Positions 2,215-62,883 of a stretch of DNA of 64,000 nt are shown one piece after another (position 1 is the stretch's first letter; every line of letters starts with the position of its first letter). The stretch is from positions 95,234-159,233 of the forward strand of contig CAYMVI010000002.1 of the NCBI GenBank assembly GCA_964394075.1. The letters run 5' to 3'. Made by a program: the position numbers and the translations under genes. The DNA is from an uncultured Eubacteriales bacterium. GTDB taxonomy: Bacteria > Bacillota > Clostridia > TANB77 > UBA1234. A model generated the notes under the pieces. That model was not told where the DNA came from, ran no database searches, and worked only from the letters and a program-made list of their open reading frames with translations.

Positions 2215-2695
2215 CTTTAGATTCCTCCCAATTAAATAATATTTTTGCACTTGATATGTCCGCAAATGCGATTTCTATATTTTCATTTTCTGATGTAATT
2301 ATAATTTCTTCTTCCTTGACATCGTTTAACAAGCCTTCATAATTTCTCTTTTTCTTAACTGGTTTAAATAGGCTAAGTGTAATTTGTTTTCCTTTTGCAG
2401 CTTCATAATGTCTTGGTTCTCTTAATCTACGTTCCAATCCACATGATGAAACCTCTAAAGAGTATGAAGTTGGTATTGGATCTGCTTCGTCCAATTTTTC
2501 TCCTACTGCATTGCTCACCTTTTCACAATCATCTAAATCGATTCCTTTTTCGTTATCGATAAATAATCTTACGAACCATTCATGATTTTCATTAACGTAT
2601 TCAATATCGTATAGTTCGTATCCTAACTCTTCAACTATTGGTGAAAGTAGTTCTTCTAATTCTTTTTCTTTATTAGTCATAATACCTCCTTGCAA
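2207..2695 (-). CDS. rimP: Ribosome maturation factor RimP.
   Basis: 162 aa. Conserved position immediately upstream of nusA. RBS AAGGAGG before the ATG. Confidence 0.8.
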   Translation of the reverse strand: MQGGIMTNKEKELEELLSPIVEELGYELYDIEYVNENHEWFVRLFIDNEKGIDLDDCEKVSNAVGEKLDEADPIPTSYSLEVSSCGLERRLREPRHYEAAKGKQITLSLFKPVKKKRNYEGLLNDVKEEEIIITSENENIEIAFADISSAKILFNWEESKGE

Positions 2696-2696
2696 A

Positions 2697-2727
2697 ACGA
2701 AAGAGTGAGGCGGGCCTCACTCTTTAA
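2697..2727 (-). promoter_or_regulatory. Leader hairpin (11-bp GC-rich stem) between the rimP promoter and the rimP RBS. Possible attenuator.
   Basis: AAGAGTGAGGC-CCG-GCCTCACTCTT, followed on the minus strand by TCGTTTTGCAAGGAGG. Confidence 0.4.
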
Positions 2728-2752
2728 GTATCAATTTTATTATGCTACGCAT

Positions 2753-2782
2753 ATTATACTTCTTATATTATATAAATGTCAA
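2753..2782 (-). promoter_or_regulatory. Sigma-A-type promoter of the rimP-nusA-infB operon.
   Basis: Minus strand TTGACA (2777-2782), 18-nt spacer, TATAAT (2753-2758). Confidence 0.5.
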
Positions 2783-2805
2783 GCCTTTTCTTACGGAAAT
2801 TTGGG

Positions 2806-2905
2806 TTTCCGGAGATTTCGGTCCAAAGGGGACGCCCATCTTTGGACCGAAATCTCCGAACGCAAAAACGCTGCCACCCACTAGGGATGACAGCGTTTGC
2901 AATTT
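2806..2905 (-). terminator. Tandem hairpins forming the terminator of the GC-rich two-gene operon.
   Basis: Minus strand after the stop at 2906: AAACGCTG..CAGCGTTTTTGCGTT (stem plus U-tract). A second perfect 18-bp hairpin follows, CGGAGATTTCGGTCCAAAG..CTTTGGACCGAAATCTCCG. Confidence 0.55.
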
Positions 2906-3400
2906 TTAGCTCACCAGATACTTCCACTGATGAATTTTGGCGGATTTCGTTTTCTCTTCCTCAGACTCACCCAGAATGGCGGAGAGCGCTTCGACCACTG
3001 CGTCCACGAGGTCCTCAGAGAAGTACGTGGATGCGTACTCAAAAATATGACCGAAACGCGTCTTCAGGTCGATGACCGTCTTGGGGATGCCCTCATTAAC
3101 GGTCTGCCATACCACGTCGTACCAGCAGCGGTAGATGTTGTCGCCGACGCATTCTTCGTGACGAATCAGACGGAGCTTAATCTCGGTAGGCTTGTCAGTG
3201 CAGCCGCACTCAACGCAGTATTCATCAACATCATCGGTAATGATATTGACGATCGCCTTCGCGGTGCAAGTAGCCGCCCCCTGCAGATAGTCGTCGGGTT
3301 TTTTGCCTTGTTCTGCCTTTTCTCGGAGGTTGATAATTTCAAACGCAAGCCTTTCCTGCTCGGTCGTCTCAACCTTTCCGATAGTAACCATTTCCTTCAT
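2906..3400 (-). CDS. Hypothetical Cys-containing small protein (164 aa), second gene of the GC-rich island operon.
   Basis: RBS AAGGAGG 7 nt before the ATG. GC ~50% against ~30% host. Motifs CVECGC and HEECVGDNIYRC suggest possible Zn binding. Acidic C-terminus. No family recognised. Confidence 0.6.
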   Translation of the reverse strand: MKEMVTIGKVETTEQERLAFEIINLREKAEQGKKPDDYLQGAATCTAKAIVNIITDDVDEYCVECGCTDKPTEIKLRLIRHEECVGDNIYRCWYDVVWQTVNEGIPKTVIDLKTRFGHIFEYASTYFSEDLVDAVVEALSAILGESEEEKTKSAKIHQWKYLVS

Positions 3401-3438
3401 TCATGTTCCTCCTTGATGGCGTTCTATCAGTTACTGTG

Positions 3439-3942
3439 TTAGTTTGTTACCTTGATATACCACTTGTAATGATTCTCATCTTCGTCGTCTGCCTCACCAG
3501 AGTAGTCCAGCAGCTCTTCGAAAGCCTCAATCAGGGCTTCGAACCATTCATAGTAGAAGTACGCCACACCTCTTGCGAAAAGGAAACCGTATGACGTAGC
3601 CAGGTTGATTTCTCCATTCAGTTCGTGGTAAATAGGATGTTCCCACTGAATCACGGATACCTCGGTATCGCCCATATCATCATGAGCGCGGACGTTAAGA
3701 ACAAGACTGTAATTCTGCTTGCTCAGCAAAGCTTCTCGGGTCTCGTCCAGCTTGTTGCAGATGGTGATGATGACACGCTTGGCAACGTAGTGAGCGCAGT
3801 CAACGATATAATCGTCAAGCATACAGCCAGGTTCTGCACTTCTCTGCAGGGATAATACCTCGTATGCAATCTGCTCTCTTCTGTCAACGACAGGTCTGAA
3901 TAAATTTACTTGATGTTTTCTCGGCACAATAATTACCTCCAT
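3439..3942 (-). CDS. Hypothetical small acidic protein (162-167 aa), first gene of the GC-rich island operon.
   Basis: Longest ORF starts at ATG 3942. RBS GGAGG sits 9 nt before GTG at 3925-3927 (MPRKHQ...), which is the more likely start. Acidic tail DYSGEADDEDENHY. GC ~50%. Confidence 0.6.
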   Translation of the reverse strand: MEVIIVPRKHQVNLFRPVVDRREQIAYEVLSLQRSAEPGCMLDDYIVDCAHYVAKRVIITICNKLDETREALLSKQNYSLVLNVRAHDDMGDTEVSVIQWEHPIYHELNGEINLATSYGFLFARGVAYFYYEWFEALIEAFEELLDYSGEADDEDENHYKWYIKVTN

Positions 3943-4054
3943 ATTTGTAATGATACTTGATGCTTTCTACCAAAAGGTAGACTCTGATGCCTACAGGTTT
4001 TTGTGCAACAAAATCCTTGTATATGCGGGTTAGAGCAACCACATATTAAATACT

Positions 4055-4096
4055 CTGACTATTTAAGACGATGTGATTATATCACACTTTGCGGTA
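4055..4096 (-). promoter_or_regulatory. Promoter with extended -10 for the island operon, overlapping a 15-bp near-palindrome that may be an operator.
   Basis: Minus strand TAGACA, 18 nt, TGTGATATAAT. The -10 lies inside the palindrome TGTGAT-ATAAT-CACA. Confidence 0.4.
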
Positions 4097-4189
4097 TTAT
4101 GTCTACTGAAATTTCTTGAAATATTGACTTTTAGCCATTTTTGATATATTAATTAGTTCAAATCAAATACAAGAAAGGAGAATTTCCGC

Positions 4190-4834
4190 ATGGCTAATCT
4201 TAGTCCCGCAACAAATGTTTTGGAATTTTATTTCCTTGCAAACAACTTAAAAGAGATCGTGCGCTCTGGCTGGAAGCAATGGAACGTCCCTCGCAAGCGC
4301 TTAGAAAGCGTTGCCGAACACGTTTTCAGCACTTGCATCTTGGCCATCGCTATCGAATCTGAGTATCACTACAACATCGACTTGTCCAAAGTATTGATGA
4401 TGCTTGTTCTGCATGAAACAGAAGAAATCGTAATTCCCGATATCACACCTTGCGATGGTGTCTCTGCCGAAGAGAAAGTGACCATCGGCCATAAAGCAGT
4501 AGAGCAAGTACTTGCACACTTGGGCAAAGCCAACGAATACAAATCTTTGATTTTCGAATTTGATGCACACGAAACTCCCGAATCTATTTTTGCATACATG
4601 TGCGACAAACTTGATGCTGACATCATGAGCCTTTACTACGACAAAGATGAAAGTTGTACTCTTGCAAAAGCTACAAGTCAGTTGCAAGAAGCACCGCTTA
4701 CCGTAAGACTTAGCGACAACGGCAAAAATTCCATGGGCGAATGTTTCAAACTTTTCGAGTACGAGCTCAATCGTTTGGACCCTAACTTTTTTGAAATTCT
4801 CAATGCAGCAAAAGACTTTTTGCAGAAGAAATAA
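4190..4834 (+). CDS. HD-domain phosphohydrolase, YfbR-like 5'-deoxynucleotidase family.
   Basis: 214 aa. ESVAEHVFSTCILAIA and LVLHETEEIVIPDITP align to the YfbR H...HD...D motifs, with the HD replaced by HE. GC ~45%. Own promoter TTGACT-17-TATATT at 4124-4152. RBS AAAGGAG. Confidence 0.75.
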   Translation: MANLSPATNVLEFYFLANNLKEIVRSGWKQWNVPRKRLESVAEHVFSTCILAIAIESEYHYNIDLSKVLMMLVLHETEEIVIPDITPCDGVSAEEKVTIGHKAVEQVLAHLGKANEYKSLIFEFDAHETPESIFAYMCDKLDADIMSLYYDKDESCTLAKATSQLQEAPLTVRLSDNGKNSMGECFKLFEYELNRLDPNFFEILNAAKDFLQKK

Positions 4835-4847
4835 TTACACACAAAAA

Positions 4848-4896
4848 AAGAAGCTACGAACACAATTCGTAGCTTCTTTGCTTTTTATTAAAACAT
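4848..4896. terminator. Bidirectional rho-independent terminator serving the HD gene and corA.
   Basis: AAGAAGCTACGAA-CACAA-TTCGTAGCTTCTT followed by TGCTTTTTATT. Confidence 0.6.
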
Positions 4897-5835
4897 ATCT
4901 TTTTTCTTCAAAATTATACATGCTATTAATGTAAATACAATTGCAATTCCTGTCACTATCCAAAATCCAAACGGATGGTTTGCAAACGGAAGACCTGCCG
5001 TATTCATTCCCCATAAACCACCAATAATTGTTGGTATTGTCATTACGATAGTCGCTGATGCTAAGAACTTCATTACTAGGTTCAAATTATTTGAAATGAT
5101 TGACGCATATGCTTCCATCGTTCCACTTAAGATGTCTCTATAAATAGTTCCCATCTCTATCGCCTGTCTATTTTCTATGATTGCATCTTCTAGTATGTCT
5201 TCATCTTCTTCATACATCTTGATGCACTTTGTTCTCATAAGTTTTTCCATTACTATTTCATTAGACTTTAAAGATGTAGTGAAATAAACCAAGCTGTTTT
5301 CTAATTCAAGCAATTTTAATAGTTCTTGATTCTTCATTGTTTTTTCAATTCTGCGTTCTGCTTTTTCAGTTTCACGATTGATGTATTTTAGGTATGTTAA
5401 GTAGTATGTTGCAATTTTGTATAACAATTGCAATATGAATCTTGTTTTCTTAAAAGTATAAAAACCTTTTACTTTGCAATCAGAAAACTCTTTTATAATT
5501 GGAGTTTCTTGTGTGCAAACTGTTATAAAATAATCATCTCTTACAACAATCATACCAAGCGGCATTGTAGAAAATCCAGTAATGCTATCTGAATTTCTTT
5601 CAACAATTGGCATGTCTATGATAATAAGAGTTTGATCATCCTCAATATCAATTCTGGCTTTCTCTTCTTGGTCAAGAGGATATCTTAAGAATTCTTCTAA
5701 AACACCAATACTATTACAAAGCGTATTTATCTCTTGGACTGTGGGGTTCACCAGATTTATCCAACAGCCTTTCTCCAATTTGTTTGTTTCTCTAAATAAC
5801 CCTTGTTCATCTTGGGTTCTATAAAATTTCATCAT
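4888..5835 (-). CDS. corA: Magnesium/cobalt transporter CorA.
   Basis: 315 aa. Two C-terminal TM helices with the GMN motif (GLWGMNTAG). Confidence 0.85.
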   Translation of the reverse strand: MMKFYRTQDEQGLFRETNKLEKGCWINLVNPTVQEINTLCNSIGVLEEFLRYPLDQEEKARIDIEDDQTLIIIDMPIVERNSDSITGFSTMPLGMIVVRDDYFITVCTQETPIIKEFSDCKVKGFYTFKKTRFILQLLYKIATYYLTYLKYINRETEKAERRIEKTMKNQELLKLLELENSLVYFTTSLKSNEIVMEKLMRTKCIKMYEEDEDILEDAIIENRQAIEMGTIYRDILSGTMEAYASIISNNLNLVMKFLASATIVMTIPTIIGGLWGMNTAGLPFANHPFGFWIVTGIAIVFTLIACIILKKKDMF

Positions 5836-5910
5836 GGTAACTCACACTCCTTTTTATTCCTTACAAATTAAACAGCGTGAGTTTATGATATTGCCCACGC
5901 TTATATAATT

Positions 5911-6663
5911 TTATTTAATAACTTTATAAACTTTCCAATCTCTTCTACCTAATTGCCATGCAAAGTCTTTATCAAACACCGCATAATCAAATCTGTATTT
6001 TCCTTTTACCGCACTACCAGTATCCATTGCAACTACATATCCTAAACCTTCAATGTAAAATTCAGTTCCCAATTTCCAATAATCAGTATCTACAGCAATT
6101 GATACGCCCGCAACAATCGGCTTGCCAGAAGCAGTAAAACCTAAATTATTACTACATTCTTCTGGACTTGGTGTATATGCAGTTCCTTCGAATATTCCTA
6201 CATATTCGAGTTTGCTAAAATCAACTGCACCATCTGCTTGCTCAGCATCACCGTAATTTTGTGGTGTAATACCTACGGCAGCAGCAATTTTCAAAGTATC
6301 TTGTAATCTCATATTTTCTTCAATAATACTTTGATTGTTTTTAGCTAACATCTCTGCAGTATACGCAAGATTTTCTTGTTCTTCAGCTATTTCTTTCTTT
6401 TGTTCCTCAATTTCTTTTTTAGTTTCTTCTATAACTAATTGATCTTTCACAACTTGCTCTTTGTCTATTTCTAAAGCATCGCTCTTTGCGTGGTATGCTA
6501 TAACAGTCCCCTTAGCGTACATATAAATGCCGGCAGCAATGCAAAGTGCTAATAGCATGCAGCCAAACACAATTCTAAAATTCTTTTTTAACTTAATTTT
6601 ATCTTTTTTTCTGCTAAGCATACCCTTAATTTGTATAGCTTTATCCGCACTCACAATGCTCAC
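5911..6663 (-). CDS. 3D-domain (MltA/YocH-like double-psi beta-barrel) cell-wall protein with an N-terminal membrane anchor and coiled coil.
   Basis: 250 aa. C-terminal GTAYTPSPEECSNNLGFTASG...VAMDTGSAVKG..RFD is typical of a 3D domain. Confidence 0.7.
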   Translation of the reverse strand: MSIVSADKAIQIKGMLSRKKDKIKLKKNFRIVFGCMLLALCIAAGIYMYAKGTVIAYHAKSDALEIDKEQVVKDQLVIEETKKEIEEQKKEIAEEQENLAYTAEMLAKNNQSIIEENMRLQDTLKIAAAVGITPQNYGDAEQADGAVDFSKLEYVGIFEGTAYTPSPEECSNNLGFTASGKPIVAGVSIAVDTDYWKLGTEFYIEGLGYVVAMDTGSAVKGKYRFDYAVFDKDFAWQLGRRDWKVYKVIK

Positions 6664-6786
6664 CTCCGTAAGGTTACAAGTTCATCACAAGTATTATATC
6701 ACAAAAGAAAATATCCGCAAGAAGTAAAATGTCAAAAACAGTAAAACAATGCAAAAAGAGACACCTCGTGCGAAGTGTCTCTTATA

Positions 6787-7617
6787 TTATGCATGAATCC
6801 AAGAACTGAATTCTTCTCTATATAATATCATGTTGATTTTAGCAAGCATTTCGAAAAACGAACTGTCACGCACCATAACAATCTCGATCATCTCTGGAGT
6901 TTTTCTGATACGTCTCTTCCCTACCTTGGTGTTTTTTACAATATCTCGAATCTCGGAATATGTTTCCTGCGTAAGGATTTCGCCACAGTAAATTCTAATA
7001 CGATAATAATAATCTCCCATTATCGAGAAAGCATATTGACCGGATACATTTTCAATGCCAAGTTCTTCAAACCTCTTGAGCTTTTTTGTTACGCCTTTTA
7101 TTAATCTAGATATATAAGATTGAGAGAGATTAAAATATTCTCTTCCAATATCATACTGATTCAACTCACCCAAATTCATCAAAGCTACGGTTGATTCTTT
7201 GACTGTAAGGCGATTCAAAATCAAATTAATTCTTCTTTCAGCCTCTTCTCTCTTCTCTATGTCTTCATAGTAGTTATGGGTATCAGCAAGCATTTCAGCA
7301 AACGTCGATTTGTCTTTCGGTCTATCTGTAGACTCGCTATCAATTGGTTCATCAATAGATATACATTTTGCCCTTATTTTGTTTTCCTTTCGGTAAAACA
7401 TTTTGATTTCATTCAAAATGCATCTAGACGCGTATGTAGAAAATTTTCTATTTAAAGTGGGATCAAAAGTAGAAGCCGCCTTGCAAAGGCCCATCATACC
7501 TAATTGACACACATCATCGTAATCCCGTGGTTCAACCTCGCATTTACGTGCAATCAAGTAATACACTAGTTTTTCGTTTTCCTTAACTAGTTTTTGTTGT
7601 TCGACATTTAATGTCAC
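6787..7617 (-). CDS. Sigma-70-family RNA polymerase sigma factor with a C-terminal extension.
   Basis: 276 aa. Region 2-like FSTYASRCILNEI. Region 4-like LSQSYISRLIKGVTKKLK. Confidence 0.65.
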   Translation of the reverse strand: MTLNVEQQKLVKENEKLVYYLIARKCEVEPRDYDDVCQLGMMGLCKAASTFDPTLNRKFSTYASRCILNEIKMFYRKENKIRAKCISIDEPIDSESTDRPKDKSTFAEMLADTHNYYEDIEKREEAERRINLILNRLTVKESTVALMNLGELNQYDIGREYFNLSQSYISRLIKGVTKKLKRFEELGIENVSGQYAFSIMGDYYYRIRIYCGEILTQETYSEIRDIVKNTKVGKRRIRKTPEMIEIVMVRDSSFFEMLAKINMILYREEFSSWIHA

Positions 7618-7793
7618 AAAAAATCATCACCTTTCCTGCAAAATAACGAAATCTCCACTTGATAATTTCACAATTCAACAATCCACCTCTCATTCCATAT
7701 TAATGAAATTCGCATGTACAATATTCATATTTTGCCACACATGTTATACCACGGAATGTCAACTTCTGTCAACCACAAAAGCCCTCGAATTAT

Positions 7794-7823
7794 TGACAAA
7801 ATCCCTTTTTCTTTGGTATAATT
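7794..7823 (+). promoter_or_regulatory. ssrA promoter.
   Basis: TTGACA, 18 nt, TATAAT, then a 17-nt gap to the tmRNA 5' GGGG. Confidence 0.5.
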
Positions 7824-7840
7824 CTAGTGTTTCTATATAC

Positions 7841-8194
7841 GGGGATGTAAAGGTTTCGACGGATATTTTGAAGCTAGAATAGCGAGTGATGGATTCTCAC
7901 TTGGCCATCTAAAAAATGTGAGAATTATAAATAATTAACAACAATAAAGTTGCTTTAGCTGCCTAGTTGCGGCTACGTTTGCCTGTTTGTGCCACTTTCA
8001 TACAACGCAAGCGTCATCTAAAAGTGGAAACGAAACTATCAAAACTTTGAGATAGTGGGTACCTATCAAGTTACCGATTTATTTAGCCTGTTTACCGGCG
8101 ACTTACTTTGGGAATCTTAAAAGATAAACTGCACTCGGAGAAGTTCTTGTGGATGGATTTTCGGACAGGAGTTCGATTCTCCTCATCTCCACCA
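7841..8194 (+). ncRNA. ssrA: tmRNA (transfer-messenger RNA).
   Basis: 5' end GGGGATGTAAAGGTTTCGACGG. 3' end GGACAGGAGTTCGATTCTCCTCATCTCCACCA (T-arm plus acceptor plus CCA). Internal tag reading frame ends ...NNKVALAA-stop (gttgctttagctgcctag). Confidence 0.9.
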
Positions 8195-8205
8195 AAAATT
8201 AATGC

Positions 8206-8240
8206 CTGTATTTGTTGAAATACAGGCATTCTTATTATTT
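8206..8240 (+). terminator. ssrA rho-independent terminator.
   Basis: AATGCCTGTATTT-GTTGA-AATACAGGCATT followed by CTTATTATTTTTT. Confidence 0.6.
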
Positions 8241-8266
8241 TTTACTGCAATTTTACTGCAACGCAC
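8241..8266. repeat. attL core direct repeat.
   Basis: TTTACTGCAATTTTACTGCAACGCA. Matches 52006-52031 apart from a 1-nt indel. Confidence 0.6.
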
Positions 8267-8277
8267 TAAAAAACAAA

Positions 8278-8469
8278 TTATTTTCTTTTTGGTTTTACAT
8301 ATCTCATAAAATCACAAATATCACAATCAAACATGTAGCAAATTTTAGCTAGTATATCTAAGTCTACTCTATCAACTCTACCACCATCTGAAAATTGGCC
8401 TAAATTAAAAAACATACATGCTTGTCTGTATATTTCAAGCGAATTTATTCTTACATTTATTCCTGTCAT
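8278..8469 (-). CDS. Small HTH-like protein (63 aa) at the prophage left end.
   Basis: C-terminal ILAKICYMFDCDICDF resembles the XRE HTH recognition helix. Weak. Confidence 0.35.
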   Translation of the reverse strand: MTGINVRINSLEIYRQACMFFNLGQFSDGGRVDRVDLDILAKICYMFDCDICDFMRYVKPKRK

Positions 8470-8564
8470 TTTAAATTATACTTTATATTCATTTTGTTTA
8501 TTTTTACTAATCTATGAATTTGGAGAAAAAAAGAAGCCTACCTCGTAAAGAGATAGGCTTAATT

Positions 8565-8810
8565 TTATTTAACTGTTGGCATAACTTCACCTTCAGCGAT
8601 TCTATGTAGTTCTTCAAAATCTTTCTTTGCAAGCTCTTCCGCTTCTTTATATGTTAAGTATGGGTATTTAGCTCCTTTAGTTGCATTCGCTTTAAACATA
8701 CTATAAGCAATATCCATATTAACACCGTTTGCTTTTGATATAGCACCGATTGGTTCATTATATTTATCCTTTATTTCTTTTTCTTTTTGATAAAAATTCA
8801 TATCGTTCAT
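8565..8810 (-). CDS. Hypothetical protein (81 aa) downstream of the lysis genes.
   Basis: ORF with an AT-rich upstream region. No recognisable domain. Confidence 0.35.
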   Translation of the reverse strand: MNDMNFYQKEKEIKDKYNEPIGAISKANGVNMDIAYSMFKANATKGAKYPYLTYKEAEELAKKDFEELHRIAEGEVMPTVK

Positions 8811-8885
8811 TCCTTTCTTTTTAGCCCATAAATTTCATTACCCTTGTCTTTAAAATCGATTTTTGAGGATTCTCGTGGCTCGTTT

Positions 8886-9446
8886 TTAACTCAATAATGT
8901 TTTTACATCGTTTGCCCACTTAATAAAAATCCATTTCTCATCTTTTATAATTTCTAGTTTCTTCAAGGCTAGTTCTTTGTCTAATATTCTTCCCGTTTTA
9001 AATAGATACTCTATTGCATCTAGTTCATCTCCATCTTCAAATAATTCAATTACTTTTTCTTCAACGTAATCTATCCAGTCAAGTTTTCCCCACTGCTTCC
9101 AACCTCTGTCTTTTAAGTTGGTTTCTACTACGCCGTATGCGTGGCCTCTAGCCTCGATTACTTTGCCATTGCCAACATATACCCCAACGTGCCCTGGATA
9201 AAAAACAAGTACACCCTTAACATCTGGCATGCTCGTTATATCGCCTTTTTCTGAACAATGGTCTAAATCAATACCGCCATCAATTTCAGCAGTATATTTA
9301 TCTGGATTATAAAAGTCATCTGGTGTTTCACAGAATAGATATCCTTTTATTAATCCAGAACAGTCATGCACTTTTTGCCCATATTGTTCAGCGAAATCAT
9401 CCGCCTTATAATATTGAGGATATTGAGCCGAAAGTCTTCCTAACAA
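8886..9446 (-). CDS. NlpC/P60-family cysteine peptidase, phage endolysin. The N-terminus may extend to about 9536.
   Basis: HDCSGLIKGY catalytic Cys motif with downstream His. The only canonical in-frame start is TTG at 9446. The conserved N-terminal segment IGRPYWYATHAHK is encoded in-frame upstream with no ATG/GTG/TTG. Confidence 0.7.
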   Translation of the reverse strand: MLGRLSAQYPQYYKADDFAEQYGQKVHDCSGLIKGYLFCETPDDFYNPDKYTAEIDGGIDLDHCSEKGDITSMPDVKGVLVFYPGHVGVYVGNGKVIEARGHAYGVVETNLKDRGWKQWGKLDWIDYVEEKVIELFEDGDELDAIEYLFKTGRILDKELALKKLEIIKDEKWIFIKWANDVKTLLS

Positions 9447-9860: not shown

Positions 9861-12800
9861 TTACCTACTCCTTTTATAGATTTTTTCTGATACTGTGTCT
9901 TGTGCAGTACCTTTAGCTTTAGTTAATAAACTTTCTTTTTTCTTTAGTTTCTCCGACTCATTCATCTCTTTGTAACTTCTTTTTTTCTCTTCTGTACTTA
10001 GTAATTTTTCATATTCATCTTTTGCAATCTGTGCATATTCCTTCATGTCAGCTTCTGTGTATTCAACCTCAACTGTCTTCATCGAATTGACTTTGTATTT
10101 ATAGGTTGTTTGTGCTGGATAGTACTCATATAGTTTTATCTTATCTGCGTTACTTGGATTGATTAAATCTTTTCCAAGATAGTATCTAGCTGTATCTGTT
10201 CTTAATTCTTGTAATTCATTGATTTTGTTTTTCTTCTGTTCTGCGTTTAATTGCAAACTATTCCTTGTAGTTTTTATGTCTTTGTTTAATAATTTCAAGG
10301 TATCTTTTGCGTAGTTTAATTGTTTTAGTTGTTCTAACTCTTCTGGTGTAGCCTCGCTATAATTTTTCTTTATCTCAAGTTCACTTGCTAATTCATAAAC
10401 TTCATCTAGAGACACACCACTCTTATATCCGCTAGCAAAGAATCTTTTTAATATAAATTGTTCGCTTTTGTTTTTTGCAGGTTGTTCTCCGCTATCTTGT
10501 ACATCTAAGAATTTATCTGCCAAATCTAAGAATTGTGTACCCAAACCAGCCAAGTATCCCTCAAAAATATTATCAATATATATTGGACTTACATTTAATG
10601 CCCCACCTAGCATTATAGCTAATTCACTAGTGTATTCATTGTATTGATCTGCTGGTTTCGTATCGCCTTTTAAATATTCTGATACTAAGTCTGTTTTATA
10701 ATAAAAATCTTTGTTTAACATATTTTCAAGCAGTGGTTTTATTATTTGTGGCACTGCATTTCCTAAATCATCTGCAGGCAACATATCAAACAATGTATCT
10801 TTTACCCAGTCAGCAAGTCTCTCGCCTTCTTCTCCTTTCGGTATCTTATCATTGCTTAAATCGTATAAATATTCAGCTAGATTTATAAAACTTCTTGCTG
10901 TACCTTGAGCTTTCTTTATAGTTAATGGTTCACTCGTGCTGTCATAAGCTATTACAAAGTTGTCTTTTTTCTTTTGGTCTGTCATTTCTTCAACATGTTT
11001 ATTTTCTTTTTCTTCTGTATATTCTTTTAAAGCAAGAGCAAACGCTATCATTATTCCTAGTTTCAACGATGTTTTAAAAGGATGTGCATGTACAGATTCT
11101 CCAAATCTATATACAGAACCAACTCTCGCTGATGAAAACGGAATAAATTTATTTATAACTCGTGTTGTTTTACCAGCTCTACCGAAGTCTTGAGTTATAT
11201 CTTTTGCATTTAGTGCTGTTTTCAATCGTATATCTCTGTTTGACATTCCCTTTTTTCTATAAAGTTTTGTTTCTTTTCTGAAGTTTTGGAAACGTGTACT
11301 TTCTTCTGTTAACTCCGATGTGTATGTCAAAAGATTCAGCGTTTTGTCTATCAACATACTTGTCAAATCTAAAAACGCTTTGTATTTTGTGCTATTTAAC
11401 TTATATTTACCAGTCTTTGGATCTTTTTTACCAAATAACACTTTTTTGTTTTTACTATATATGTCTGTTGCATTATCTCTTATTTTAGCTCTATATGTTG
11501 AGAATCTACCAGATTGACTCGCTCCACTTTGTTGATATAAATTATAGAACTCTTTTTGTGCTTCTACATATTCCTGGAAAATAGGTACTTGACTTAATAT
11601 TCTTGAAAAAACATTATCTCTTCCAGCAAGAGTATTTACAATTCCAAGGATATTGTCTACCAAAGGAATAAACACAGTATCACTATATAAAAACGCTTGT
11701 TGTGAGTCCGAAATGGCATTCGGCACAGCAAATTCTGCGTTCGCCATTGTAGCACCATATCTCAAAGGCATATTAGCCCAATTCATAAATTTTTCAACTA
11801 TATTCATATTTTGGCTGTTCATACCTTTTAAAACGTTGTACAAGTCTTCATCATAAAATTGAACGAACACCCTTTTTCCATCATCAATATAGCTCATTAT
11901 TTTATTTTTATCATCTGCTAATTTCATGTTAAATACGTTATAAACTTCTTCTAAGTTTAGGTCGGATGTATCTATTCCTTGTTGCGAAAGAGCTTTTTCA
12001 AATTTTGATAATTCAACACTTCCTTTGTATTCCATTGGTGGTGGTACTATTTCAAATAAGTCAGCGTATTGGTTGCTTTTTCTACCTAAATTAACTAATG
12101 ATTTCAAGACTTTATTGTTTTCAACTTGTCTTATAATTCTTGAAGCATTAACAATAGTACTTTCTATTGGATCAATGATTTCACGCTCAGAACCAGTTGT
12201 TTTATACACTGTTTTTCCTACTTTTGCTCCTTTTGTTGATGCAGATATTATTTTACCTTCATTATCCATTACTCTGTTCATCGCAATATAGTTTTCATTT
12301 AATTTTTCAATATCTTCAATTTGTTTCGCTGTAAATAAACCTTCACGCCTTGCATATTCCAAAATACCGTTGTTTTCTTTTCTGAAATTATCTGCTGTTT
12401 TCTTTATTTTTTCATCTTTTTCTAACAGATTAGTTGTCGCAATAGCATCTTCTTTTCTTAATCCTGTTTGTTGCCCTTTCTTCACATAGTCTCGATTTCT
12501 TTGTGCAATCAACAAAGCTCTTAATTTCATCATATCTTCTGCTTTACTTATAGGCTCTAATACACTAGCAAAACCTTGTGTTATTTTTTCATCAGTGTCC
12601 CAATCTCTAATACCCTTATTTAGCATATTAGTTGTTTGGTCGCTTCCACTATTGACCAATCTAAATAGCACATAAGGGTCTTCGCTTGGCTTTAATTCGT
12701 GTCTGTTTCTTAACCCAGTTCTTTTTGCAAGAGTATCGCTAGCCTTTTTCAAATACCAGTTATCATCATAAATTTCAAACATAAGCCTATCTATAAATTT

Positions 12801-15800
12801 ACCAAGAGTAAAATTTTTCTTTTCATCTTCGTTAATAGACACATTACTCATTATTCTTTCTTCAGGTCTCATGTTTATATATGCTTTTACATCGTTTATT
12901 AAATCAGTAAATAACTGATCCAATTCAACATTACTTTCTCTTGCTTCTGTGATAAAATCAGCCAAATAAGGATATTGTTTTATAGCGTTTTCAGTATCTA
13001 CAATATATCTTCTCGTAAATTCTGCAAAACCTTCTTGAAGTTTTATTTTTGGAGTATTGTTATATACATCGCCAAATTGTCTCTCACATAAATTATTCAT
13101 TTCTCTTGCTAATTCTTTGTGTTGTTTTTTCCATGCTAAAGTATCTTTTGTTGGTGTCACATTTAATTGTGCTAAATCGACATGATGTCCTAACTCGTGA
13201 ATAATTGATTCTATATCAGTTAACTGCTTTGTTCTTATAGATTGAATTGCTGAATTATAAACTGCATAAGCTTTTTGTCTAAATCCACCTGTACGAATAG
13301 GTCTGCCTAAATATTTTTCAATTTTTTGGCGAATTTCTTTTCTGCTTATAGTTCCTAAATTTTCTTCTCTGCTAACCTTACCGCTTTCAATGGCTCTAAT
13401 TTTTTGTTCTATTAAAGCTGACATTCTTTCTGCGTTCGTTTTATAAGAATCTTGTACACCATCATCTTTTCTGCTTAACTTTATTTGTGAATCCTCATCT
13501 AATTTAGGCTTTGCCGTTGCTTTTACTTTCTTCACTTTGCCATCTGTATCATGGAATATATTTTCTTCTTTCATGGCATTAATAAGTGCTCGCCACGATT
13601 TATTTATGTTTGCTCTTTCTTCTCCTGCAGGGAAAGGATTAAACAAACCATATCTATCATTGTTAACCGAATGAACCAAATAATCATTTGTTATTCCTTT
13701 TTTCTTTAATTCATCATGTACAAAAGCCTCAAAGCTTCTAGCTAGCATCTCTTCTCTTAGAGCAAAATATGTTGATGCTCTACCCATTAATTTATCCAAT
13801 TCTCTTGCAGATTTACTAAATGCACTTTCAGAGCGAACAAATGCAACCTGTTTAGCAGGCACACCACTTCTATACAAAGAATATACTGTATCATCATCTA
13901 TTTTTCTGTTTGTAACAGCTTTTATAAGTGTTTTCAAATCTTCTAAAGGTTTATCATATATTACTTCAAATTTACTTCTAGAAATTTGTTTGTAATCTCT
14001 TTTGTCCTTTAACTTACCTTCTATAAGTATTTTTCTTATTTTTTCGTACTCTTTCTTTTGTTCTGCAGTTACTTCTATTGGAATATTCTTATATTCGCCT
14101 TTAACTCTCTTATATTTTTTTGCTTTACCATCAAATACATCATCATAATATTTCAAGTTATATTCTATACTGCTTTTTCTATTTTTTTCAAACAAGGCGT
14201 TTTTCTTTGCAATTTCTTCCTCGTTTGTTGAAAAACTGTATTCTATATTATCTAATAGTTCTCTATATGCCTTTGTTACACTTTCTGGAAGATTCCTATA
14301 CATTTTGTGTATACTCAAAAGTCCATCACTATCATAACCAGATAATTGCGATAAATAATTATCTAGTGCATGCCCCATTTCGTGAGCCACACTTCCTGCT
14401 CCTTTTAACTTTGTCATATTAAAAACTTTTTTCACTGGCTCAAAATGTGCAGATGCACCACTTAATCCATGACCTCTTGCACCAAACGCAATAGCCATTT
14501 TACCATTGAATCCTAAGTCTGAAGGTATAATATCTAGTGCTGTTGCCAAATCAGTTAAAGAATCATATCCATAATTTAAAAACTTTTGCCTTTCTTCATT
14601 GTTAACCCAATTTCCAAATTCTCCACCCCTGAAATTAAATTTATCTAATATTTCTTGTCCTGTTGCATTAACACTATTTGCATTATTAGGATTTATTCTT
14701 GTAACTTTTTGAATTTGTGGTCTAAATAGATTTTTTCCATGCTCAGCCAAATACATACTTAAAGCCATTGCGTATGATTCTGCTTCTTCTCTTGTACTAA
14801 AAGATTTTCCAGTATCTCTACTTTTTAATGTTTTAGGTTCTATTATTTTTACAATGTATCTTTTATGCTTATTACCTTCTTTGTCATAAGCATAACCTTC
14901 TTCTACTCTAGCTCTATTATTATTTATGTTTGTTTTAAATTCTTCTAAAAACTTTTCAGCATCCGCTTCTGACTTAAAATCGCCTTTTAAAACATTACCC
15001 TTGAACGCTACACTATATACTTCTTCTGTCTTTCCATCTTCGGTTTCAATAATATCTTTATTGATTGTGTAATTATGAATAACCTCTCTTGTAAAATGTT
15101 TTTTAGTGCCTTGCCATACATCTTTTCTAGCACCACCAATTTTCTCACCAAAATCATCTATTTTTTCTGTTTTGTTTTTAGCTTCCAGTTTTTCAATTTC
15201 ATTTCTTAATCTTTTTCTTTCAGCATCCCATTTATCAAAACCATCTCGTGCTTTTTCAGTATATTGTAATGATTTTGCATATTCTTTGTATTTCAATTCA
15301 GCATAATCAAGCTCTACATTTAACCCTTTTAATTTATCGGCTAAAGAAAAAGAACCCTGTTCATTAGAGTTCTTTTTGTATATTAGTTCTATATGTTTTT
15401 TTATAGTTACAATCGTATCATTGTAAAATTTTTCTCCCAACGCATCAATATATACTTTTTTGAGATATTGTGCATCTTTATCATTTATATCTGTAGTATT
15501 CAGATCACACAAAATTTCTTTTGCAAAATTTTTTAAGTCTTTCGCAATGTCTCTTTTTTGTTTGTTACTTAATAAATCTTTATATTCATTAAAAAGTTTA
15601 TTAATTGCCTTAGCGTTGTTGCTGATAGAGTGTATTATTTTTGAAAAATCTTCTATTACAATTTTAGTATGGTTTAACAGCATGTCTTCTACTAGTTCAT
15701 GATTTAAAACAGCTTTATATCCAACAGACTCTGCTTGCCCTATCGAAATATAAATTCCATCTTGTGCAGTGAAACTAGATATATCATCGTTTTGAAAAGC

Positions 15801-34879: not shown

Positions 34880-35043
34880 ACTCTCTTCGTTTTTTACATT
34901 CGTTGCATAAATGTTTCATGCAATACTCAAAATTCATATTTTCCATAGAATCCGCTCACTTCCATAAAAAACGACCTCTGAGAATCGCTTATTTTGGATT
35001 TTATTGCTTATGCTAATATTCCATGTTGCCTATTTTTACACAG

Positions 35044-35080
35044 AAAAAAGAGTTACACGTTAAATGTAACTCTTTCTCCT
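35044..35080 (-). terminator. Rho-independent terminator ending the phage tRNA-array transcript.
   Basis: Perfect 10-bp hairpin AAGAGTTACA-CGTTAAA-TGTAACTCTT, followed on the minus strand by TTTTTTCTG. Confidence 0.6.
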
Positions 35081-35142
35081 TTTCCACTAATGACATTTAA
35101 ATTTTCTTCGTTCATTAAATGGTTGGTAGCCATGAACGAATT

Positions 35143-35229
35143 TGGCGATATGGTGAGGTATCGATCCCCATGCTTTTACACACCAACTGTTTTCAAGACA
35201 GTGCTCAGAGCCATCTGAGTTACCATACC
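35143..35229 (-). tRNA. Phage tRNA-Ser (anticodon TGA), type II.
   Basis: 87 nt. Acceptor GGTATGG/CCATATC (one G-U). D-stem CTCA/TGAG. Anticodon arm ACTGT-CTTGAAA-ACAGT. 15-nt variable arm. T-arm TGGGG-ATCGATA-CCTCA. Encoded CCA. Confidence 0.6.
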
Positions 35230-35297
35230 ATTAATGTGCTAATGCTAACCCCACATCAGCATAACTATCCCTCACGACCACCGATAGTTTTCCCGTT

Positions 35298-35390
35298 TGG
35301 CGACAAGCTGTAGACTCGCACTACATGCGTTGTGACAGAACACACACATCCCTTAGCAGGGGAGTTCCAGACTTTCTGGATTAACTTGCC
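35298..35390 (-). tRNA. Phage tRNA-Ser (anticodon GCT), type II.
   Basis: 93 nt. Acceptor GGCAAGT/GCTTGTC. D-arm TCCA-GAAAGTC-TGGA. Anticodon loop CTGCTAA. Variable stem-loop TGTG..CACA. T-arm TGTAG-TGCGAGT-CTACA. Encoded CCA. Confidence 0.55.
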
Positions 35391-35402
35391 ATATATAAAA
35401 TA

Positions 35403-35486
35403 TGTGGGTTGGGACTCGAACCCAACTTCCTCGTACGCTCCACGAGCCCTTTCGAGTCGCATTATGCTACCTATACACCACCACAT
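35403..35486 (-). tRNA. Degenerate tRNA-like element (possible type II tRNA or pseudogene).
   Basis: Canonical T-arm TTGGG-TTCGAGT-CCCAA and a 3' acceptor strand. 5' strand ATGTGGT pairs with one mismatch. No canonical anticodon stem-loop could be drawn by hand. Confidence 0.3.
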
Positions 35487-35590
35487 ATTATTCGTAATGC
35501 GTTATAATCTCCTAAGATATAAGCATTGGTGAACTCCGTAGAAGCCCGTAGACTTGTTCGGTTGTTCGTACTAGATTTGGTCGACCTAGT

Positions 35591-35665
35591 TGGTTGGAGT
35601 TAAAGGACTTGAACCTCTAACCTGCTGGATATAAGCCAGTTGCTCTGCCATTGAGCTAAACTCCA
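35591..35665 (-). tRNA. Phage tRNA-Ile (anticodon TAT, decodes AUA).
   Basis: 75 nt. Acceptor TGGAGTT/AACTCCA. D-stem GCTC/GAGC. Anticodon arm ACTGG-CTTATAT-CCAGC. T-arm AGAGG-TTCAAGT-CCTTT. Discriminator A plus CCA. Confidence 0.6.
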
Positions 35666-35712
35666 ATATAGAAAAGGGGGAGTATTTGGATTGCCAATAT
35701 ACTCCGTTGATT

Positions 35713-35796
35713 TGTTACAAGTGAGATTTGAACTCACAATCCCTGTACGTTGTTTCGGTATACCATCAGTGCTTTATCCAGTTAAGCTATTGTAAC
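35713..35796 (-). tRNA. tRNA-like element with perfect acceptor, D and T arms but a non-canonical 33-nt anticodon/variable region.
   Basis: Acceptor GTTACAA/TTGTAAC. D-arm GCTT-AACTGGATA-AAGC. T-arm GTGAG-TTCAAAT-CTCAC. The middle segment contains the palindrome GGTATACC and no 5-bp/7-nt anticodon hairpin. Confidence 0.35.
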
Positions 35797-35840
35797 ATGT
35801 AGTGAGATTAGCTGAGTAGTAAGCTAATCTCTAAGGAAGT

Positions 35841-62756: not shown

Positions 62757-62883
62757 TACCGTAAAGTATACTTATATGAATGGCGTATCGCACAAAAGAA
62801 TCTACTTATTGCTGCTTCCTTCCGGACCTGACAAGGTTCATAGCCTTTCATCGCACACCATTCATATAAATACACTTTACGGT
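62757..62883 (-). ncRNA. ffs: Signal recognition particle RNA (small/4.5S-type).
   Basis: Minus strand contains the domain IV consensus GTCAGGTCCGGAAGGAAGCAGC inside a long hairpin (5' TACCGTAAAGTG.. 3' ..ACTTTACGGTA). Promoter TTGTGT-17-TATAAT immediately upstream. Conserved position upstream of dnaX. Confidence 0.7.

Follow-up and report, generated by a model that had tools for sequence, protein, structure and literature searches.

Loci for polymorphic toxins typically have tandem paralogous immunity genes, and the tandem immunity-gene arrays of polymorphic-toxin and T7SS systems (EsaG/DUF600 and SUKH families) form the comparison set for the pair of small genes discussed here. Depletion of nucleotides is, according to reviews, reportedly used against phage, and the dNTP-depletion defences that bear on our locus are those with a Dgt-type dGTPase, a dCTP deaminase or a SAMHD1-like protein. 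The small HD phosphohydrolases include human HDDC2, yeast YGL101W/YGK1, the 5'-deoxynucleotidase YfbR of E. coli, OxsA of B. megaterium and the dATPase DatZ of phage S-2L. DatZ-type enzymes of this fold hydrolyse dNTPs, and the metal-A ligands are conserved across all representatives compared (PMC8065100).

We have analysed a stretch of 64,000 nucleotides from an uncultured Eubacteriales bacterium (contig CAYMVI010000002.1), which we call the window. The patch at 2700-4850 has a coding GC of 42-51% against about 31% in its flanks, and carries two small genes, A and B, and a divergent gene for an HD phosphohydrolase (HD). The reading that we favour, and consider somewhat probable, is that the patch consists of two independent transcription units, inherited vertically at a fixed chromosomal site by a small clade of uncultured Clostridia from the ruminant gut. 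The first would be a strongly promoted bicistronic B-A operon for two soluble paralogues, each of about 163 aa, and the second a divergently transcribed HD_3 phosphohydrolase from a broad subfamily with an HE dyad, which would have no need of A or B. The locus would then be a cautionary case, in that a compact GC-foreign unit with divergent promoters, resembling a defence or TA module, can be two unrelated, vertically inherited units at a fixed site.

Genes A and B

Gene A (2906-3400, minus strand) encodes a soluble alpha/beta protein of 164 aa, with the Shine-Dalgarno (SD) sequence GGAGG at 3408-3412. Gene B (3439-3927, minus strand) encodes a protein of 162 aa from GTG 3927, the likely start since GGAGG (3936-3940) lies 8 nt upstream, ATG 3942 overlaps the SD sequence and the relatives are called at 162 aa; the ORFs of A and of HD are as given in a preliminary description of this DNA. 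To judge from their sequences A and B are paralogues, with a BLASTP match over the full length (E 4e-13), and the AF2 models have one topology for the two (pLDDT 83.5 and 84.7, pTM 0.83 and 0.84). The duplication behind them is ancient. Both are under strong purifying selection, with dN/dS of 0.02-0.07 between close strains, rising to about 0.4-0.5 between species.

In AT-rich genomes a GC-rich spot is often a structured RNA, and there is a long antisense ORF at 2897-3442 on the plus strand (181 aa in the window, with a 374-aa counterpart in the relative L015), so that one might take the stretch for such a non-coding RNA, or the antisense ORF for the real gene. We regard this as extremely improbable. 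Rfam, at gathering and permissive thresholds, gave only hairpin noise in the patch and no match, and substitutions in the A and B frames fall mostly at third positions (dN/dS at or below 0.07). The antisense frame, when codon-aligned, has 56-70% protein identity against 88-95% for the sense frames and is interrupted in L012 and L060, and this poor conservation and the breaks rule it out as a true gene. The paralogy, the SD sequences and the confident AF2 models support the sense frames.

With regard to other features that had been remarked on, the cysteine cluster of A (CVECGC...HEEC) is ruled out as a metal site, as the cysteines already vary at 60-70% identity. The proteins are acidic as described (pI 4.7-4.8) but not distinctively so, since the products of rimP, nusA and corA have pI 4.6-5.1; with flanking housekeeping proteins just as acidic, the acidity is no clue to a DNA mimic.

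It had also been said that the small proteins match no nameable family, and this holds after family, PDB and Foldseek searches. Pfam, NCBIfam, PHROGs and PADLOC gave no family for the single sequences or for 16-19 family members, the scattered sub-threshold matches (SCF, SAND_ULT1, DUF5442, phrog_7503) being inconsistent, and a PDB sequence profile search gave no match. A structural match was taken as E <=0.001, which Foldseek reached neither in the PDB for models A and B (best E 0.03-0.06, TM < 0.3) nor in BFVD for model A (best E 6e-3). A and B are a new protein family without detectable sequence or structural relatives. The family is of restricted distribution: in a set of 5.8 billion proteins it makes up 15 clusters (90% identity), in one of 1.84 billion it has about 4 representatives (50% identity), and in 185,579 species genomes it occurs in 2 species and one mis-binned contig. 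No relatives were found in phages, plasmids or IMG/VR, and small neighbours of HD in L021 and L061 proved unrelated when compared with the A/B profile by hhalign.

The order B then A is kept in all lineages with a spacing of 18-47 nt, which is 38 nt in the window and again in the most distant lineage, and the pairing appears from these arrangements to be obligate. That lineage, the fourth (P0018), is known from contigs of 760-786 bp, and there the pair adjoins a flavodiiron/flavorubredoxin-like gene instead of HD; this sole HD-less context is a 786-bp contig with one flank visible. A set of Glu/Glu/Asp/Tyr/Lys on helices 1-2 is without variation in allele groups 1-3 (the A1 set), with the most distant members varying at D37, and we suggest that these residues may be the working surface, the remainder of the protein diverging very fast between species. 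A and B most likely act together as a pseudo-symmetric hetero-oligomer, presumably in a ligand- or partner-binding role. If this is right they would be a new family, predicted to be well folded, of two ancient paralogues in a few uncultured ruminant-gut Clostridia, and so a candidate for structure determination and a test case for clade-specific pairs.

It is also conceivable, if unlikely, that the B-A pair serves in conflict by itself, binding an external toxin or phage protein as an orphan immunity-like or inhibitor pair would; it would have been kept after loss of its cognate partner or be aimed at the effectors of competitors, with HD a bystander. A and B do resemble the immunity arrays of T7SS and polymorphic-toxin loci in being tandem soluble paralogues (about 160 aa) whose sequences change fast from species to species but are strongly constrained within each, and the promoter and SD sequences are strong and look constitutive. 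However no toxin gene (LXG, Rhs or nuclease) is adjacent or nearby in any locus, and no known immunity family or fold is matched in sequence or structure, the comparison with EsaG (8gup) giving only E 1.2 and TM 0.14. Furthermore there are always exactly two copies, in a fixed order, whereas immunity arrays are variable. It is very unlikely that B-A is a new-fold heterodimer under episodic diversifying selection, forming a conflict module with or without HD and with its GC codons kept by selection; the suggestion that such a module senses or inhibits an effector that hydrolyses nucleotides, or that the pair confers immunity, is equally doubtful.

The HD phosphohydrolase

The HD gene (4190-4834, plus strand) encodes an HD_3 (HDDC2/YfbR/DatZ-type) phosphohydrolase of 214 aa. 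It matches PF13023 (HD_3) at E 3.5e-26 and 92.5 bits (cut-off 22.5) over residues 18-164, and PF12917 (YfbR-like) at 31.9 bits (cut-off 25.9). In the PDB it matches HDDC2 (4dmb, E 3.8e-12) and also 1xx7, 2cqz and 5yox, the relatives there being HDDC2, PF0395, PH0347 and YGL101W. Alignment with HDDC2 gives R25, H44, H75-E76, E79, D84 and D142 as putative ligands. The dyad H75-E76 aligns to the HD of HDDC2, and the metal-A set H...HD...D is thus altered by replacement of Asp by Glu; the protein is indeed YfbR-like with an HE dyad, as first noted. With residue roles taken from E70, D75 and R19 of DatZ (PMC8065100), the site-B Glu (dyad+4, E79) and Asp (dyad+9, D84) and the N-terminal Arg (R25) are all present. 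In comparison with the small HD phosphohydrolases listed above, HD keeps Arg-x-Gly-Trp, H44, H75, E79, D84 and D142, but differs in having Glu for the dyad Asp and Pro-Asp for Gly-Asp.

The HE dyad is found in 113 of the 120 closest HD homologues, which defines an HE subfamily. The dyad is therefore real but not a local oddity, being a trait of a subfamily that, on the sequences available, is broad in Firmicutes. The change of Asp to Glu is conservative, and we have filed the HD protein as a member of a variant subfamily. Homologues that are about 60% identical occur by themselves, in other contexts and without A or B, and HD probably has metal-dependent (deoxy)nucleotide phosphohydrolase activity and works independently of A and B. 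The small HD phosphohydrolases with an HE dyad are an uncharacterised subfamily of more than 100 clusters, and they test the assumed invariance of the metal-A Asp in this fold.

Promoters and leader

The B-A promoter (4076-4105, minus strand) comprises TAGACA, an 18-nt spacer and the extended -10 TGaTATAAT, and scores 11/12 in the promoter scan. The palindrome TGTGAT-TAT-ATCACA (4072-4086, 6-bp arms) lies over this -10, as had been described, but it is not conserved, being lost in L013, L015 and L011; the extended -10 is the sole conserved part of the palindromic region. With the palindrome lost in relatives, the proposal of a self-regulated unit is not supported. The putative HD promoter (4124-4150, plus strand) was found by eye, the promoter scan being silent, and consists of TTGACT (4124-4129), which is conserved in relatives, a 15-nt spacer and TGaTATATT (4142-4150). 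Divergent promoters are present in the intergenic region as reported, and in allele groups 1-3 they are back-to-back, about 20 bp apart.

In having two small co-transcribed genes, a strong promoter, a -10 palindrome (in this strain) and a foreign-looking composition, B-A is like a type II TA system. It differs in that A and B, equal in size, are paralogues without a match to any TA family, the palindrome is not conserved and the locus is fixed, and we do not retain TA as a description of the small-gene pair.

The B-A operon has a 5' leader of about 140 nt (3928-4068, minus strand), taking the transcription start at its predicted position. Within it an inverted repeat, TTAAATA-N7-TATTTAA (4066-4046), is invariant, and it also has a hairpin AUAUGUGG/CCGCAUAU with the conserved loop UUGCUCUAA (4046-4021), in which there are two compensatory pairs, and alternative hairpins with a U-tract around 3994-3968. 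Between allele groups the leader is better conserved than the coding sequence, and it probably controls or stabilises the mRNA. A search for the leader core in metagenome and viral collections gave 37 matches, of which two are real and both at this locus, so it is not a general regulatory motif.

The locus in relatives

The trio had been described as wedged between the rimP operon and corA, and in all relatives of allele groups 1-3 with flanks visible its position in the corA|rimP gap is unchanged and the GC3 excess recurs. Housekeeping genes flank it, rimP-nusA-infB on one side and corA/3D on the other. In the preliminary description, presence at the same locus with a similar skew in related strains was held to speak against an acquired module, and this is largely what we find. 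Co-localisation is confirmed within allele groups 1-3, but outside this clade the genes are found apart.

Protein identities between the window and L015 are 49% for A, 52% for B and 78% for HD, with 86% for rimP, 96% for corA and 97% for nusA. The divergence at four-fold sites is 0.50-0.58 for the island against 0.42-0.54 for corA, rimP and 3D, with nusA at 0.24. As island and flank thus have similar synonymous divergence, the trio has been inherited vertically since before the split, and as it is common to lineages with a four-fold-site divergence of about 0.5, the islet is old. The corA|rimP gap is structurally variable, and divergence along the locus is mosaic, involving HD in L017, where the allele is 78% identical against 96-99% for its neighbours, and A in L001; this mosaic pattern suggests recombination. 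An exact-sequence look-up with the rimP of the window, aimed at finding island-free strains, gave no record.

These data bear on the proposal that the three genes form one nucleotide-centred module, TA-like, for immunity or anti-phage, in which the HE-type HD would deplete or alter (deoxy)nucleotides and A and B, as a hetero-complex, would detect a trigger or keep the enzyme in check, all under a shared control region. The constant adjacency and divergent arrangement in allele groups 1-3, the raised GC3 of all three genes, the pattern of A/B evolution, fast between and constrained within species as is often the case for conflict genes, and the divergent HD allele of L017 would all fit, as would the activity of DatZ-type enzymes and a weak match of HD to the phage dATPase PHROG 7076. 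However, co-occurrence in one vertically inherited lineage is a single observation and counts once, and HD homologues elsewhere are without A/B just as the most distant B-A pair has no HD upstream. PADLOC gave no match for A, B or HD and no significant one for any family member, with one of 19 A3 members matching PDLC04153 at E 0.007. There is no defence-island or mobile context, and the trio is in every sampled relative rather than patchy. A and B are paralogues, which is not TA-like, the codon signatures of A/B and HD differ, and the promoter palindrome is not conserved. With dNTP-depletion defence the HD gene shares the HD-superfamily nucleotide phosphohydrolase, but as a 214-aa HD_3 protein it is unlike the large Dgt/SAMHD1-type dNTPases. 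We therefore consider a three-gene module to be quite unlikely and have set aside the TA, immunity or defence description, given the paralogous A/B, the PADLOC result and the fixed locus. In the two-unit account that we prefer, coupling of HD and B-A may nevertheless exist within the clade, as the adjacent, divergent arrangement with back-to-back promoters in three allele groups makes this possible.

Composition and origin of the patch

The overall GC of the 64-kb window is 0.332. By gene it is 0.509 for A, 0.458-0.464 for B and 0.422 for HD, against 0.31 for rimP and nusA and 0.32 for corA. The excess is at synonymous sites, with GC3 of 0.64 for A, 0.53 for B and 0.47 for HD against 0.14-0.34 for flanking genes, and no other ORF of at least 90 aa in the whole window has GC3 above 0.38. 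The claim of a compositionally foreign patch is thus well founded, with no further genes of this kind in the 64 kb. A/B have a codon set that looks foreign throughout (CTG for 13/25 Leu, no ATA, CAG 8/10), and in every lineage A/B are enriched in C3 and G3 and HD in C3 only.

We infer a horizontal origin for the patch genes. The GC-rich codons are most likely due to long-past acquisitions, one of A/B and another of HD, from bacteria richer in GC, with amelioration still incomplete. The P0018 pair is not anomalous in its contig of about 41-48% GC, which is compatible with a GC-richer source. It is unlikely that the composition is not foreign but kept in place by selection on codons or mRNA, or by gene conversion biased to GC at a spot prone to recombination. 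GC3 is still 0.45-0.64 in lineages at a four-fold-site divergence of about 0.5, above a simple neutral estimate of amelioration, and HD homologues from other AT-rich genomes also have raised GC3. No GC-rich donor carrying A/B was identified, and the mosaic divergence and variable gap would also suit such a spot. Among the synonymous singletons of the island 58 are GC-to-AT and 37 AT-to-GC, only a mild excess towards AT, in a small polarised test whose flank control gave an unexpected AT-to-GC excess. On the other hand the shift is very large for gene conversion, and the full foreign-looking codon set of A/B and the unremarkable P0018 pair count against a composition kept in place. Under an old acquisition, as we prefer, it is a small puzzle about amelioration that synonymous sites have stayed GC-rich over substantial divergence.

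Edges of the patch

The patch is like ORFan islets acquired by horizontal transfer in its sharp break in composition and codon usage, its lineage-restricted genes and its variable intergenic gap. It differs in being old and in having neither an identified donor nor, within 2500-5100, any integrase, tRNA target, direct repeats, att repeats or mobility genes. Of the description as horizontally acquired, the foreign-looking synonymous sites remain, but a mobile unit is not supported. An inverted repeat flanking the island (2888-2904 and 4939-4955, 82% over 17 nt) is attributed to chance.

The patch has its own terminators, as had been reported. Between the convergent HD and corA genes there is a bidirectional intrinsic terminator (4847-4879) with a perfect 14-bp stem. 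Directly 3' of the gene A stop codon there is a terminator-like hairpin with a T-run (2866-2898, minus strand), conserved in groups 1 and 2. The only repeats at the A|rimP boundary are palindromic and strain-variable. In the window a perfect inverted repeat (2810-2858, minus strand) with 19-bp arms and an 11-nt loop separates the terminator of A from the promoter of rimP. This repeat is peculiar to the strain, and a related 22-bp unit has been expanded in L015 to an inverted repeat with 74-nt arms.

Composition of the patch

A sliding-window profile gives a GC content of 0.41-0.54 across about 2700-4800, against 0.28-0.36 on either side. The patch holds gene A (2906-3400, minus strand, GC 50.9%), gene B (3439-3927/3942, minus strand, 46%) and the HD phosphohydrolase gene, HD (4190-4834, plus strand, 42%), while rimP, nusA and corA are at 31-32% and the whole window at 33.2%. 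The excess is located at synonymous positions, with GC3 of 0.64 for A, 0.53 for B and 0.47 for HD as compared with 0.14-0.34 for the flanking genes, and among about 65 window ORFs of at least 90 aa no other gene has GC3 above 0.38. The GC-rich patch of the preliminary description is thus real. The codon set of A and B is foreign to the host: CTG accounts for 13 of 25 Leu codons in the two genes and 1 of 71 in rimP, corA and nusA, ATA is absent, Gln is CAG in 8 of 10 cases and Lys AAG in 14 of 20.

The raised GC3 is kept in all allele groups at this locus, and in every lineage A and B are enriched in both C- and G-ending codons and HD in C-ending codons only. It could be argued that the composition is not of foreign origin and that selection or biased gene conversion keeps it where it is, as GC3 persists beyond a simple amelioration estimate and the synonymous singleton spectrum of the island is near-balanced, although the flank control for this spectrum behaves oddly; we consider this unlikely. 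In that control (corA, 3D, rimP and nusA against the related contigs L001, L005, L014 and L017) there were 95 AT-to-GC and 23 GC-to-AT synonymous singletons, an excess opposite to the usual mutational bias; it might stem from polymorphism that is slightly deleterious, from imports by recombination or from noise in the assemblies.

The A and B proteins

A and B are genuine proteins that are paralogous to one another, and together they constitute a new family. BLASTP aligns them over their full length (24% identity, E 4e-13), and dN/dS between close strains is 0.02-0.07 for each. Seventeen positions are invariant across 16 A1 sequences spanning both subfamilies; among them are five on the first two helices (E16, E21, D37, Y38 and K48), as well as W93, G117, Y126 and W159. 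That the genes are a non-coding or antisense artefact is barely conceivable. An antisense ORF at 2897-3442 was considered as a gene and rejected: it is codon-aligned and stays open solely through the avoidance of TTA, CTA and TCA codons, conservation of its translation is 56-70% against 88-95% for A, and its frame is broken in L012 and L060, so that we take it to be a by-product. There is no Rfam match in the island region. For B the GTG at 3927 (minus strand) is the most likely start, as GGAGG lies 8 nt upstream of it, the upstream ATG overlaps the Shine-Dalgarno sequence and the relatives are called at 162 aa.

AlphaFold2 gave confident models (pLDDT 83.5 and 84.7, pTM 0.83 and 0.84 for A and B), with the same predicted alpha/beta topology, in which a short helix and one of 30 residues are followed by a long beta-hairpin, two further helices and C-terminal strands. 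Foldseek found no structural match in the PDB (best E 0.03-0.06, TM below 0.3) or, with the model of A, among viral structures, sequence profile searches found no PDB relatives, and there was no match among the models of Pfam, NCBIfam, PHROG and PADLOC. By the tests applied A and B belong to no known family. The ancient duplication, the constant retention of both copies in the same order and closely spaced, and the invariant polar cluster that they share suggest that the pair probably forms a pseudo-symmetric hetero-oligomer.

The distribution of the family is extremely restricted. Among 5.8 billion proteins, word-seeded searches gave 7 clusters with A and 8 with B, and among 1.84 billion representatives an exhaustive profile search with HMMER gave 4 proteins. 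In GTDB contigs, with one genome per species, it was found in two Clostridia/Eubacteriales animal-gut MAGs and on one 1.6-kb contig; the latter, which has HD and B arranged in the same way, is binned to Paludibacteraceae, probably in error. Relatives are absent from GenBank phages, PLSDB plasmids and IMG/VR.

The HD phosphohydrolase

The HD protein is a member of the HD_3 family (92.5 bits), and the nearest solved structures are human HDDC2, two archaeal 'oxetanocin-like' proteins and yeast YGL101W. Alignment shows that R25, H44, H75, E79, D84 and D142 are retained, and the equivalent residues in DatZ and HDDC2 bind two metals and stabilise the intermediate (PMC8065100). The sole change among the aligned ligand residues is in the dyad, H75-E76, with Glu for the canonical Asp, and the protein is thus a variant member of a known family. 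The HE dyad is present in 113 of the 120 nearest homologues, and therefore marks a broad Firmicutes subfamily and not local degeneration.

GC3-rich genes recur near HD homologues of other AT-rich genomes. On L021, from another Clostridia MAG, such genes lie near corA and a 3D gene (4955-9263), namely orf182 (GC3 0.63), HD (0.47), an MBL-fold protein with an Apyc1-type Pfam match (0.45) and orf135 (0.57), interleaved with ordinary genes of GC3 0.18-0.28. On the contigs L019/L020 a 44-aa Cys/Asn-rich ORF with a hydrophobic tail (MGDNCCNNVANTNCGCNNNNGCDICNN..., 5641-5775), just upstream of a lone HE-type HD gene, may encode a small modified or membrane peptide.

The locus in related genomes

There are three allele groups at the corA-rimP locus: group 1 (the window, L001, L005, L013, L014 and L017), group 2 (L015, L011 and L060) and group 3 (L012). 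The contigs L001-L010 derive from sheep and yak rectum samples. In all three the gene order, wherever flanks are visible, is corA, HD (on the opposite strand), B, A and rimP-nusA-ylxR. Between the window and L015 protein identity is 97% for nusA, 96% for corA, 86% for rimP, 78% for HD, 52% for B and 49% for A. Divergence at four-fold sites is similar for island (0.50-0.58) and flanks (0.42-0.54), which indicates that the island genes co-diverged with the host. The low identity of A and B reflects a high non-synonymous rate, dN/dS being roughly 0.4-0.5 between lineages, in contrast to the tight constraint inside group 1.

The gap between corA and rimP is structurally variable among the relatives, and is an insertion hot spot. 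In the L015 lineage only, two low-GC genes lie between corA and HD (2516-8192), which we name by reading the sequence: one encodes a surface protein of 1338 aa that is rich in repeats, SLH-like at the C-terminus, and the other a polytopic protein of 534 aa resembling O-antigen ligases. The spacer from the A terminator to the rimP promoter carries strain-specific palindromic repeats: in L015 (10535-10718) the 22-bp unit TTCCGTCCAAACGGGGACAGCC is present three times directly and twice inverted, giving an inverted repeat with 74-nt arms, and in the window there is a related single hairpin with 19-bp arms (2810-2858) that is in none of the other loci compared. At the boundary of the island there is thus a family of palindromic repeats that varies between strains. 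The patch is not bounded by any integrase, tRNA or att-like repeat.

Separability and relationship to known systems

HD homologues at about 60% identity are found in unrelated contexts without A or B. In the fourth, more distant lineage, that of P0018, the most divergent B-like protein, an A-like gene lies 38 nt downstream, and the divergent upstream neighbour has a flavorubredoxin/flavodiiron-type N-terminus and is not HD; contigs of this lineage, 760-786 bp long, are about 41-48% GC. The lone HD homologues, the P0018 context and the differing codon enrichment argue for HD and B-A as separable units that differ in history; that they are neighbours in this clade is a single arrangement passed on by inheritance and does not amount to replicated evidence of coupling. 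The explanation that we favour, at somewhat better than even, is an orphan B-A operon encoding an obligate paralogue pair, with a neighbouring HE-variant HD gene of ordinary type; both units would have been acquired long ago and then inherited vertically at one fixed site.

The preliminary description likened the three genes, taken as a self-regulated unit, to toxin-antitoxin, immunity or anti-phage modules. The back-to-back promoters, the fast divergence and an HD allele swap in L017 are in keeping with a nucleotide-centred module of this kind, but the separability, the ubiquity within the clade and the absence of defence or mobile signatures speak against it, and we regard it as distinctly improbable. 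The unit lacks the testable defining features of type II toxin-antitoxin modules, catalogued defence systems, polymorphic-toxin immunity arrays and classic mobile islands; that B-A alone is an immunity-like pair is also quite improbable. On present evidence we have a clade-specific gene pair beside a variant of a known enzyme and not a new kind of system, and the pair is worth structure determination and pull-down.

Regulatory elements

The cis elements described previously are present: a perfect inverted repeat with 19-bp arms (2810-2858), a hairpin with a T-run (2866-2898), a bidirectional terminator (4847-4879) and a sigma-70-type B-A promoter (11/12) with a TG extension. The palindrome reported there does lie over the -10 (4072-4086), but is lost in L013, L015 and L011, and the extended -10 alone is conserved.

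The 5' leader of B-A, about 140 nt from a putative transcription start near 4068, surpasses the coding sequence in conservation. It has an invariant TTAAATA-N7-TATTTAA repeat, and a hairpin (AUAUGUGG/CCGCAUAU) with an invariant loop (UUGCUCUAA) and two compensatory pairs, which are weak evidence as both are from one lineage. Closer to the start codon there are also alternative hairpins and a U-tract. The folding energy is unremarkable (z -0.13), the leader core was at no other locus in the metagenome and viral collections searched, and the leader is absent from the P0018 lineage. A cis-regulatory or stabilising role of the leader is probable.

In the rimP 5' leader a hairpin with a perfect 12-bp stem and a T-rich run after it (2700-2725, minus strand) sits between the rimP promoter (2782-2753) and Shine-Dalgarno sequence, also in L015 and L011. 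All relatives keep the stem, with a loop that varies (CCCG or GAGA), and the hairpin probably acts as attenuator for the rimP-nusA-infB operon.

Other features of the window

A stretch at 34880-35800 has GC of 0.43-0.46 and is free of ORFs of at least 90 aa. It is beside a minus-strand tRNA cluster with tRNA-Phe(gaa) (88 nt, 35400-35487) and tRNA-Ile(tat) (35591-35665), both from ARAGORN, and a further tRNA at 35713-35796 from Rfam, which gave no other matches in the stretch. It borders many small same-strand genes (about 36-49 kb) with a prophage-like look. A single 2835-aa ORF (9861-18368, minus strand) has a local GC-rich patch at about 17400-17900. The tmRNA (7841-8194, plus strand, 157 bits) and small SRP RNA (62772-62866, minus strand, 60.5 bits) are ordinary housekeeping RNAs.
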